From positions 1 through 26,144 of the forward strand of contig JANRKO010000088.1 in NCBI GenBank assembly GCA_033763455.1: 26,144 nt of DNA, written 5' to 3'. The translations under genes and the position numbers were made by a program. The number at the start of each line of letters is the position of its first letter. Within the stretch, counting starts at the first letter, position 1. Positions 23,601-24,209 of this stretch are shown here, one piece after another. The DNA comes from Polyangiaceae bacterium. GTDB taxonomy: Bacteria > Myxococcota_A > Polyangia > Polyangiales > Polyangiaceae. Under the pieces are notes generated by a model that worked only from the letters and a program-made list of their open reading frames with translations, was not told where the DNA came from and did not search any database.

Positions 23601-24209
23601 GGAATCCCTGTGTCAACGAAAGACGAGATGTTGCTGCACCATCTCCGTTTGCTATCGGTTATGACCTGGCGAGGCGCCAAGCTCAGCCGCAAGAGCCGCT
23701 GGCATGCTGCCTTCACCCACTACGTCGAGCTGATCGCCGACAAGGTCCGCGCGCTCGGCGGCGATCCGTTCGCCGTGCCCGCAACTCCCGACGGGATGAT
23801 CCCTCAATTGCCTGGCAAAGATGGCAACCACCCCGACGGTGGCGGAGTAGGAACGGACACCGGGGGCACGGGCGGAGCAGGTAACCCTGGCGGTACGGGT
23901 GACCCGTACTTCGAACCGCAAGCGGATGACTGGTTGTCGGAAATGACAGGACAAGAAGCGCAAGGCACGGCGAAGCCAGGTATGTTGTCAGGCAAGATCA
24001 GCGGGCTCTTGTACGACCACTTTGGGGACTTTGAAGGCTTCACCCTGGAAACCTATGGCGGTGCGCAATGCCGCTATTTCAGCCGCGAGACCGCGATTCT
24101 TGAGCTTGCGCGAACGGCATGGCTCGAACGCTACGTGGTGACCGTTATCACGCCTGCCGCCACGAGCCAGCGTGTCCGCCGCCTGCTGATAAGAGGCTAT
24201 TCTGACTAG
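20604..24209 (+). CDS. 1201-aa multidomain hypothetical protein (GATase/ThuA-like head, beta-rich core, small C-terminal OB-like domain)
   Basis: Long uninterrupted ORF with GGAGGAGG RBS. DVIWLIG...LSDAELAAIARFMDAGGGVFATGDH, DHMHEG, GRIV...FHHY, NITNWL. No signal peptide or TM seen. Confidence 0.9.
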   Translation: MATKVLIVLDGSYRFDIGSGGTQDFTYTALVSSLTSAGMQVTKAHRQADTTADLQSFRFDGAGVNLLDHDVIWLIGFDGRNSTSMSGTSGAGLSDAELAAIARFMDAGGGVFATGDHDSIGAEMSGHIPRVRAARCWYGEADSASPMPAGFPRNFPPITSARADTTRPNPGGDYSEFAAPFIWFENQSDSVPQAITPTTTPAHPILRRNGNNVVVYPDHMHEGQTLGEVAGYDYTQTITLAGETFTEFPIVAGEHPKPRIIATGEVLGFQNRDATSGAFVGGNDAISAPKNVNTLSVYDGHRVGVGRIVTGATFHHYVDINLTGDTDINTAPRKARTGADAEKGHGFAHPGAEEVFADIKAVFVNITNWLARPRPTISLILERSTFGEDEVTASSQFNAAILVTVDGLKPSQFPGGGITTLSPSGAQLASWAPTVTPTGVSAIEIVPTSVSSDDPTLPARLQRFTFTYRVRFVANAFGFAGPSQVVPVQATLTSPAAPAALNDNAWIQLVKSANPFMLDLDGGNTTTWLSSDLKVFRVVAGETVHGQTLPDSATRAQALQFIRNLTNSISVGQFEALSGNQSASALSPFPITSTGKPVYNFAVARVRRNGTMAAANDVRVFFRIFTSQTTAALTYREAMGAPIEGYRKTAGATPIALPGVTSDGNEWLSFPFFSKVRAASPNVQDDPDNVKTITVAQNDKFFGALIDNNLPGSYLPPTPVSAGAGTSLPTLLMGEHQCLVAQVEFAGTPIPSGANPATSDKLAQRNIALSAVANPGVNASRIAMHTFEIEATPHLISDELRPDELLLEWSRDVPDDTYVRIHIPSWNAEEVVALADRFYPCHDVRAVDAHTIEVAGGGMRYVPIPKSLQRQTGVLSAELPLGIKKGQRFDVSVRQITNRSRNVKVPQPKSKRISLQEAEKLIAELGAANDRRGANADGNGTRKRGVFDLGNNRSLVTDLSVFDAVSDHALIIEHPDPKEVEAARRASGLWRETVGAFQLGIPVSTKDEMLLHHLRLLSVMTWRGAKLSRKSRWHAAFTHYVELIADKVRALGGDPFAVPATPDGMIPQLPGKDGNHPDGGGVGTDTGGTGGAGNPGGTGDPYFEPQADDWLSEMTGQEAQGTAKPGMLSGKISGLLYDHFGDFEGFTLETYGGAQCRYFSRETAILELARTAWLERYVVTVITPAATSQRVRRLLIRGYSD

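Follow-up and report, generated by a model that had tools for sequence, protein, structure and literature searches.

The DNA studied here is a 26,144-nt contig of a Polyangiaceae bacterium (GenBank assembly GCA_033763455.1, contig JANRKO010000088.1; the whole stretch is called the window below), and its subject is a forward-strand open reading frame (ORF) at 20604-24209, closed by a TAG stop at 24207-24209, that encodes a 1201-amino acid (aa) protein ending in a small oligonucleotide/oligosaccharide-binding (OB) domain. We found that this C-terminal module is interchangeable: orthologs carry in its place a transmembrane (TM) helix or a Cys-containing tail, or lack a module altogether. The OB domain belongs to an unnamed family found almost only at the C-terminus of one rare superfamily that has spread horizontally. 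Members of the superfamily combine a variable, enzyme-like head with a conserved chassis of ~700 aa, followed by a linker and the C-terminal module. An initial annotation, made from the sequence alone, had aligned the domain by eye with the Shiga toxin B subunit (StxB) and read it as an oligomerizing and/or glycan-binding OB domain fused in cis to a large enzyme. This interpretation was partly supported: structure prediction confirmed that a real OB fold had been recognized, and the domain is not a Shiga toxin B subunit. More notable than the Shiga likeness are the uncharacterized modular superfamily and the exchange of its OB domain for membrane anchors.

The C-terminal module is exchanged among orthologs

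Of 380 homologs in the collection, the 120 listed, which are 55-78% identical, served as the ortholog set. Eighty-five of these end in the OB domain, 20 in a TM helix and 10 in a Cys-containing tail (basic and amphipathic in seven), while the remaining five have nothing beyond a conserved G-G-D-P...P-D-G motif. On a FastTree phylogeny built from the chassis columns alone, the distribution of modules could not be explained with fewer than 13 changes, and well-supported branches (local support of 95% or more) forced 10 or more of these. Shuffled module labels gave 33.3 on average, and a run with a cruder module classifier gave 15. Because the OB domain has repeatedly been exchanged for a TM helix or a Cys-containing tail, and has sometimes been dropped, we infer that it is not catalytic.

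The TM helices end 0-7 residues ahead of the C-terminus, which is the layout of a tail anchor and would leave the body of the protein in the cytoplasm. The net charge of the 12 residues upstream of the helix exceeded that of the 12 downstream in 9 of the 20 proteins and was equal or lower in the rest. C-terminal membrane-targeting elements are familiar from other systems, the amphipathic helix of MinD being one example. Here orthologs of 55-70% identity have the TM and amphipathic elements where the OB module would stand, following the same linker, and this shared position suggests an equivalent role in placing the protein. The two kinds of module are physically dissimilar, a hydrophobic segment in one case and a folded, soluble, slightly acidic OB barrel in the other.

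Several further features of the tails and the linker stood out. Among 33 genome loci, 18 encode an OB domain, four a TM helix and seven a short hydrophobic V-V-I-V-N-I-(F/Y) tail, and four are cut by a contig end or frameshifted. The seven tails form a third type of C-terminus, found in Dyella, Paraburkholderia and proteobacterial metagenome-assembled genomes (loci L006, L007, L010, L012, L013, L021 and L023), in which an acidic linker is followed by (E/G)-V-V-I-V-N-I-(F/Y)-P-x-G-K-(D/E)-H-K within the last 25 codons; the V-V-I-V-N-I stretch is strand-prone and too short to span a membrane. At locus L025 (Sphingomonas sp. 7/4-4 chromosome, 6001-7140) a frameshift ~95 codons into the head interrupts the ortholog, which is likely a pseudogene or a sequencing error. 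A G-C dipeptide opens the hydrophobic stretch in almost all TM-type tails and in 7 of the 10 Cys-containing tails (P0068, P0072, P0083, P0104, P0108, P0111 and others); as a sequence feature, it could reflect common descent of the tails or a lipidation site. Within the otherwise variable linker, a motif F-E-P-x-x-D-D-W-L is conserved (window 23901-23945, aa 1100-1114), and the TM-type ortholog P0060 keeps it two residues (S-G) ahead of its TM helix.

An unnamed domain family within a modular superfamily

At E ≤ 1e-3, a HMMER search of 1.84 billion representative proteins found 408 clusters with the OB domain, which matches no model in Pfam or NCBIfam. These clusters define a domain family that lacks a name and has a sharp sequence signature: G-K, D-x-F-G-D-F-x-G-F, S-R-E and A-W-x-x-R. 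Among the matches listed, the OB domain ends no more than 22 residues from the C-terminus in all 29 proteins of 996 aa or longer, and named homologs are called 'hypothetical protein' or similar. Stand-alone genes resembling a toxin B subunit were considered and rejected: 29 OB matches are shorter than 660 aa and, because nearly all of these lie on contigs of 5 kb or less, they are mostly C-terminal fragments. None of 30 family proteins inspected has a signal peptide-like N-terminus.

The heads of the family were examined with a Pfam scan that covered 74 of the 150 OB-domain matches listed. Pro-kumamolisin/sedolisin domains were found in eight proteins, BNR repeats in three and Kelch repeats in two; a phospholipase-C-type phosphoesterase (E 2e-80), LGFP repeats, a Listeria-Bacteroides repeat and DUF4118 occurred once each, and 57 heads matched no family. 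The sedolisin-, phosphoesterase-, BNR- and Kelch-headed paralogs share with the window protein aa 376-900 and 980-1066 as well as the OB domain (BLASTP, 27-41% identity). The LGFP-repeat protein matches the window protein in the OB domain alone, indicating that the module can move to another context.

This exposes a modular superfamily that spans phyla and whose members (window 20604-23801; P0148, P0209, P0181, P0204 and others) are 1,000-1,400 aa long, with swapped heads on one chassis that Pfam left uncovered in all proteins scanned. Recognizable hydrolase heads (sedolisin, phospholipase-C-type phosphoesterase, BNR and Kelch) ride on this chassis, as do a Listeria-Bacteroides repeat and possibly a ThuA-like head, and the C-terminus alternates between an OB barrel and membrane anchors. 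The parts of the window protein are given in Table 1. The public gene call on the contig starts 38 codons downstream of the ATG at 20604; the alignment consensus of 66 homologs opens at that ATG. The N-terminus is hydrophilic, and no signal peptide was found in the 1201-aa protein. The initial annotation was therefore right that the domain is fused in cis, since a disordered linker joins it to a large protein without a signal peptide, and paralogs have recognized enzyme heads.

Table 1 Features of the window gene and its protein
Feature	Position	Strand	Basis
Whole gene	20604..24209	+	ORF list and translation; 380 homologs; no signal peptide
Head domain, aa 1-370, possibly ThuA / class-I glutamine-amidotransferase-like (lead only)	20604..21713	+	Paralogs carry other enzyme families here
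Conserved chassis, aa 376-1066	21729..23801	+	BLASTP with paralogs, 27-41% identity
Gly/Pro/Asp-rich linker, aa 1067-1125	23802..23978	+	Weakly conserved, predicted disordered
C-terminal OB-fold domain, aa 1126-1197	23979..24194	+	AlphaFold2 model, fold searches, 408 clusters
Motif D-H-F-G-D-F-E-G-F, aa 1138-1146, strand 1-2 hairpin	24015..24041	+	Highest conservation in the OB domain
S-R-E, aa 1160-1162, strand 3/helix junction	24081..24089	+	Conserved; R in register with the invariant StxB-family R

Predicted fold and conserved surface of the OB domain

The 75 residues quoted in the initial annotation are exactly the translation of 23982-24209, aa 1127-1201. An AlphaFold2 model built from a 102-residue query and a 53-sequence alignment had a mean predicted local distance difference test (pLDDT) score of 87, with a core at ~98, and placed strands at 27-38, 44-51 and 56-60, a helix at 64-76 and strands at 79-84 and 94-98 (query numbering). 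This order of strands 1-3, helix and strands 4-5 corresponds to aa 1126-1197, which are predicted to fold into a compact OB barrel of five strands, a single helix linking strand 3 to strand 4, and it bears out the beta-beta-beta-alpha-beta-beta order proposed from the sequence. The part of the linker that was modeled had a pLDDT of 57-60.

Across 84 OB-type orthologs, mean identity to the window protein was 0.62 for the head, 0.64 for the chassis and 0.68 for the OB domain, compared to 0.31 for the linker; the OB domain is thus as conserved as the chassis, and the linker is not. In a sample of 194 non-redundant domains (out of 229), near-invariant positions comprised G1130, K1131, D1138, F1140, G1141, D1142, F1143, G1145, F1146 and L1148 in the first half of the domain and G1153, S1160, R1161, E1162, A1172, W1173, R1176 and V1181 in the second. 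They concentrate in the strand 1-2 hairpin, where D1138, F1140, G1141, D1142, F1143, G1145 and F1146 are each 95-99% conserved, and in the S-R-E at the strand 3-helix junction (S 85%, R 86%, E 96%). Ligands of OB folds usually bind at this face, made by the strand 1-2 loop and the junction of strand 3 with the helix. Exposed positions of the helix are variable. The window domain has no Met, nor do 112 of the 194 members, and its single Cys (C1156) is at a position that is mostly R or H across the family, with two or more Cys in only 16 of the 194 domains.

A Foldseek search of the PDB placed Shiga toxin B subunits at the top (6fe4_A, E 7.5e-3, target template-modeling score 0.71, root-mean-square deviation (rmsd) 2.6 Å, 20% identity), and no PDB match reached E ≤ 1e-3. 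Foldseek's top 998 chains were then re-scored by Z, with rows within one Z unit counted as ties. The Ag(I)/Cu(I) chaperone SilF ranked highest (Z 10.7-9.9; best row rmsd 2.3 Å over 71 residues), followed by the Stx2a, Stx2e and Stx1 B subunits (Z 9.4-8.8; rmsd 2.1-2.4 Å over 67-69 of 67-70 residues, 16-19% identity), CipA of Photorhabdus (Z 9.0) and other AB5 B subunits (Z 8.0-8.8). RecO, Rim1 and RPA scored at most 8.1, the best nucleic-acid-binding OB folds lying 1 to 1.3 Z units under StxB. Since rows within one Z unit are ties, StxB is not uniquely the closest fold. The model therefore has an OB fold of the compact type that takes in the toxin B subunits.

In the BFVD library of viral structures, the best match was P10 of phage APSE-5 (E 6.5e-4), with p7 of APSE-1 at rank 5 and DNA-ligase OB domains after it. 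The APSE P10 protein, which has no Pfam family, is the top viral structural match to the OB domain, and APSE-1 P7 belongs to the StxB Pfam family only below threshold, scoring 22.6 bits where the cut-off is 27. The BFVD entries concerned are B6SCY6 and Q9T1U1, and the regions concerned are L045:4487-4795 and 6681-7037.

Resemblance to Shiga toxin B subunits

We next considered how far the likeness to StxB (PF02258; 7d6q_B, 1r4p_B, 1cqf_A) extends. The two agree in size (~70 residues) and in the order of elements, a ~70-residue OB fold with a helix between strands 3 and 4, and they share the G-K start, F-T-(L/V), an R ahead of the helix, an A within it and V-T-(V/I). An hhalign run blind to the alignment made by eye returned the same register, both against Stx2B alone and against a 13-sequence StxB profile, with the G-K-I start, F-T-(L/V), S-R ahead of the helix, A in the helix and V-T-(V/I) coinciding in both runs. 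The window domain differs in having three extra residues in the strand 1-2 hairpin and in being part of a large protein without a signal peptide or disulfide, whereas StxB is a separate secreted subunit. The absence of the disulfide had been noted in the initial annotation, and indeed neither Cys position of StxB is matched.

Significance tests did not raise this similarity above background. BLASTP of the domain against Stx2B of phage 933W gave no match (E 12). With the 53-sequence OB profile, hhalign gave E 0.46 against Stx2B alone and E 0.057 against the StxB profile (probability 0.96%, 56 columns in the correct register), and the Viterbi score was equaled by 15 of 300 column-shuffled StxB profiles. 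Pairwise alignment with StxB gave a local z of 1.9 (108 of 2000 shuffles as high) and a semi-global z of 2.8 (40 of 2000); with CusF as a control, the local z was much the same (1.9), global alignment gave no signal and hhalign aligned only 10 columns (E 0.35). PF02258 (SLT_beta) did not match the 75-aa domain at E ≤ 0.1 or E ≤ 1, in a scan that gave Stx2B 162 bits and APSE-1 P7 22.6 bits, and the APSE proteins provided no bridge in hhalign (P7, E 0.51; P10, E 0.16). Nor did the domain find a family elsewhere: no Pfam family matched at E ≤ 1, its profile returned only noise from PDB sequences (E > 0.6), and the single domain returned only designed TIM barrels through repeated 6-bit stretches, which were taken as spurious. 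On these tests the sequence likeness to Shiga toxin is not distinguishable from chance. What stands of the proposed tie is resemblance at the level of the fold, a fold shared with SilF and CipA; the sequence match that was thought to support it is not significant.

A true remote homolog of AB5 B subunits, forming an StxB-like pentamer that binds glycans or glycolipids and fused in cis to an enzyme, nevertheless deserves consideration. StxB chains are the top Foldseek matches in the PDB, over their full length and with the highest identity among the top folds (16-19%), a weak Pfam relative of StxB (APSE-1 P7) ranks fifth in the viral library, and the full-length hhalign alignment is in register, with the family-invariant G, K, F, R, A and V coinciding. 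The conserved acidic loop and S-R junction lie at what we take to be the position of the globotriaosylceramide (Gb3) sites of StxB, and exchange for membrane anchors would suit a binder of membrane head groups. Against this, none of the sequence comparisons is significant (PF02258, hhalign at ~1%, 15 of 300 shuffles, APSE P7), and SilF and CipA fit the fold equally well. AB5 B subunits are described as secreted pentamers that bind glycans, for which a ring with a helix-lined pore is defining (PMC11610972). The window domain matches no StxB Pfam model and is neither a separate small polypeptide with a signal peptide nor disulfide-bonded in the StxB manner; no A-subunit gene was found near the window gene, whose neighbors are an unknown 202-aa ORF and a FAD-linked oxidase. 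In addition, judging from the tail-anchored orthologs, the body of the protein lies in the cytoplasm, a compartment poor in glycan ligands, and the exposed helix positions are variable. The remaining AB5 B subunits compared (LT-IIb B 1qb5, pertussis S5 1prt_F, PltB 6p4p, SubB 3dwa and cholera toxin B) are larger, at 98-120 aa, and have a higher rmsd to the window domain (3.0-3.6 Å). We therefore regard such homology as unlikely, and nothing suggests that the window gene is a toxin.

Were the weak StxB likeness homology, it would bear on the origin of AB5 B subunits. In one version, a distant, ring-forming relative of StxB would bind the head group of a polar lipid or glycolipid from within the cytoplasm and act as a soluble equivalent of a tail anchor. 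We consider this improbable; if true, it would be the first non-toxin relative of AB5 B subunits fused in cis to an enzyme and would suggest that toxin B subunits could have been recruited from a reservoir in the environment.

A proposed tethered localization or assembly module

From the exchange described above we infer that the OB domain may be a tethered localization or assembly module, one that keeps or gathers the enzyme body at a surface of the cell or in a multimer, and we give this reading about an even chance of being correct. It fits best because the domain is an independently folding unit on a flexible tether, occurs behind unrelated heads and is exchanged for membrane anchors. In such a mechanism, the OB barrel, hanging on a ~60-residue disordered linker at the end of the 1201-aa protein, would place or cluster that body on a surface, most likely the membrane's cytoplasmic side, or within a multimer. 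This could be achieved by binding a ligand at the strand 1-2 loop and the S-R-E junction, which together make up a conserved face of acidic and aromatic residues, or, by analogy with CipA and the AB5 B subunits, by oligomerization into a ring. A role as a lectin is less likely given the apparent cytoplasmic location. The module switch thereby yields a testable hypothesis, that a toxin-B-type OB barrel outside toxins places or clusters an enzyme.

CipA (7xhs) is the nearest functional analogy to this localization or assembly role. It is described as a bacterial OB protein that crystallizes in cells, with strands 1-3, helix and strands 4-5 in the same order, and that forms a ring tetramer with bundled helices, built like the AB5 B pentamers (PMC9530169); Cip proteins are also described as clustering enzymes fused to them. 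CipA differs in being free-standing, ~100 aa long and able to crystallize in cells.

Several observations weigh against a localization or assembly role. The best structural match, SilF, is described as monomeric (PMC10656224). The domain is slightly acidic (mean net charge -0.7; 54% of the 194 domains net negative), which does not favor simple electrostatic binding to anionic membranes. P0202 joins the OB domain to an N-terminal DUF4118 membrane domain, where a further anchor would be redundant, and the five orthologs without any C-terminal module indicate that the module is dispensable for retention of the gene. Replacement by TM helices shows evolutionary interchangeability, not identical function.

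Alternatively, the OB domain could regulate the protein from within, docking by way of the linker on the head or chassis as a plug or as a lid resembling a pro-domain. The linker is long enough to reach the head and the domain is strongly conserved, but the same OB domain stands behind heads of unrelated folds, and the TM helices that replace it cannot serve as plugs. No chassis position co-varies with the presence of the OB domain: among orthologs lacking it, no chassis column relaxed or switched consensus, and a docking site on the chassis was rejected for want of any such signal. Regulation of this kind appears quite unlikely.

A nucleic-acid-binding OB domain like those of SSB, RPA or RecO, tying the protein to DNA or RNA, is very unlikely, as such folds rank under SilF, StxB, CipA and most other AB5 B-subunit matches, the domain is not basic (net charge of +3 or more in just 14% of the 194), its conserved residues are mostly acidic or Phe in a tight hairpin, and it is exchanged for membrane anchors.

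Metal binding of the CusF/SilF type is highly improbable even though SilF has the highest Z (10.7, rmsd 2.3 Å, 71 residues): the SilF/CusF chaperones (8bbz, 8bwv, 8bhu) are ~10% identical to the window domain, SilF is described as periplasmic with a metal site of His, Trp and two Met (PMC10656224), whereas the window domain is the C-terminal part of a protein without a periplasmic signal and lacks this site, with no Met at all, as in 112 of the 194 family members, and hhalign against CusF aligned the 10 columns noted above.

Head and chassis of the window protein

No Pfam or NCBIfam model matched the head of the window protein. The sole named hint is the UniRef label 'ThuA-like domain-containing' on one ortholog. 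ESM Atlas feature matches of the head to families resembling class-I glutamine amidotransferases (GATase1) were weak (0.82-0.87, all below 0.9), the rest of the Atlas matches being unnamed or weak, and hhalign of the head against the same genome's own ThuA proteins gave a weak match of only 17 columns (E 0.043). A PF06283 scan of the whole genome found four other genes and not the window gene. A ThuA/GATase1-like head is thus only a lead. Polar head residues conserved at 90% or more are T114, D116, R130, R162, T165, S188, D189, Q193, D218, R307, T310, H315 and D319. D116 lies within an A-T-G-D-H-D stretch, at what is presumably the nucleophile-elbow place of a GATase1 fold, and the stretch may serve as an active site without a Cys or bind a metal.

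Chassis and head matched nothing in Pfam, NCBIfam, PADLOC, PHROGs or PDB sequences, whole-protein profiles gave no match to PDB sequences at E ≤ 1 or E ≤ 10, and no internal repeats were found in the chassis. Its near-invariant residues include an H-x-C pair (H736, C738) and S-D-K-L-x-Q-R-N (aa 759-766). A literature search with the motif strings, StxB-like phrases, or ThuA-like, tail-anchored and OB-fold terms returned no relevant paper.

Distribution and genomic neighborhood

The 120 homologs listed span many phyla, and named carriers include Shewanella salipaludis, Dyella humi and Paraburkholderia species. A sample of 200 other genomes from the same order had the chassis in two, a phylum sample of 400 genomes had it in none, and its own genome has a single copy. 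None of the window's neighbors recurs across the 33 loci, the only recurrent neighbor 'families' being shadow ORFs within the gene itself, and the Pfam content of 82 flanking ORFs at 21 loci was heterogeneous. The gene is evidently a rare, solitary accessory gene that has moved horizontally. G+C content is flat and unremarkable at ~0.60, and a scan for promoters and terminators gave nothing above shuffles.

Upstream of the gene, at 17241-19665, a 577-aa class-I methyltransferase-domain protein matches PADLOC mad2 (E 1.6e-20). Next to it, overlapping its end by 89 nt, comes a 259-aa YhcG/DUF1016 PD-(D/E)xK nuclease ORF that matches the defense candidate PDC-S02 (E 2e-82) and may be truncated, covering only positions 3-107 of the 157-position nuclease model. 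These mad2-like and PDC-S02/YhcG-like ORFs raised the idea of a defense island, which was rejected because the pattern is absent at other loci (82 flanking ORFs, 21 loci). Farther upstream, at 11664-17244, a run of genes sharing one strand may be an envelope-related operon; it encodes a DUF4175 protein of 998 aa, a Peptidase_MA_2 protein of 549 aa whose gene overlaps the first, and a phosphatidylserine decarboxylase.

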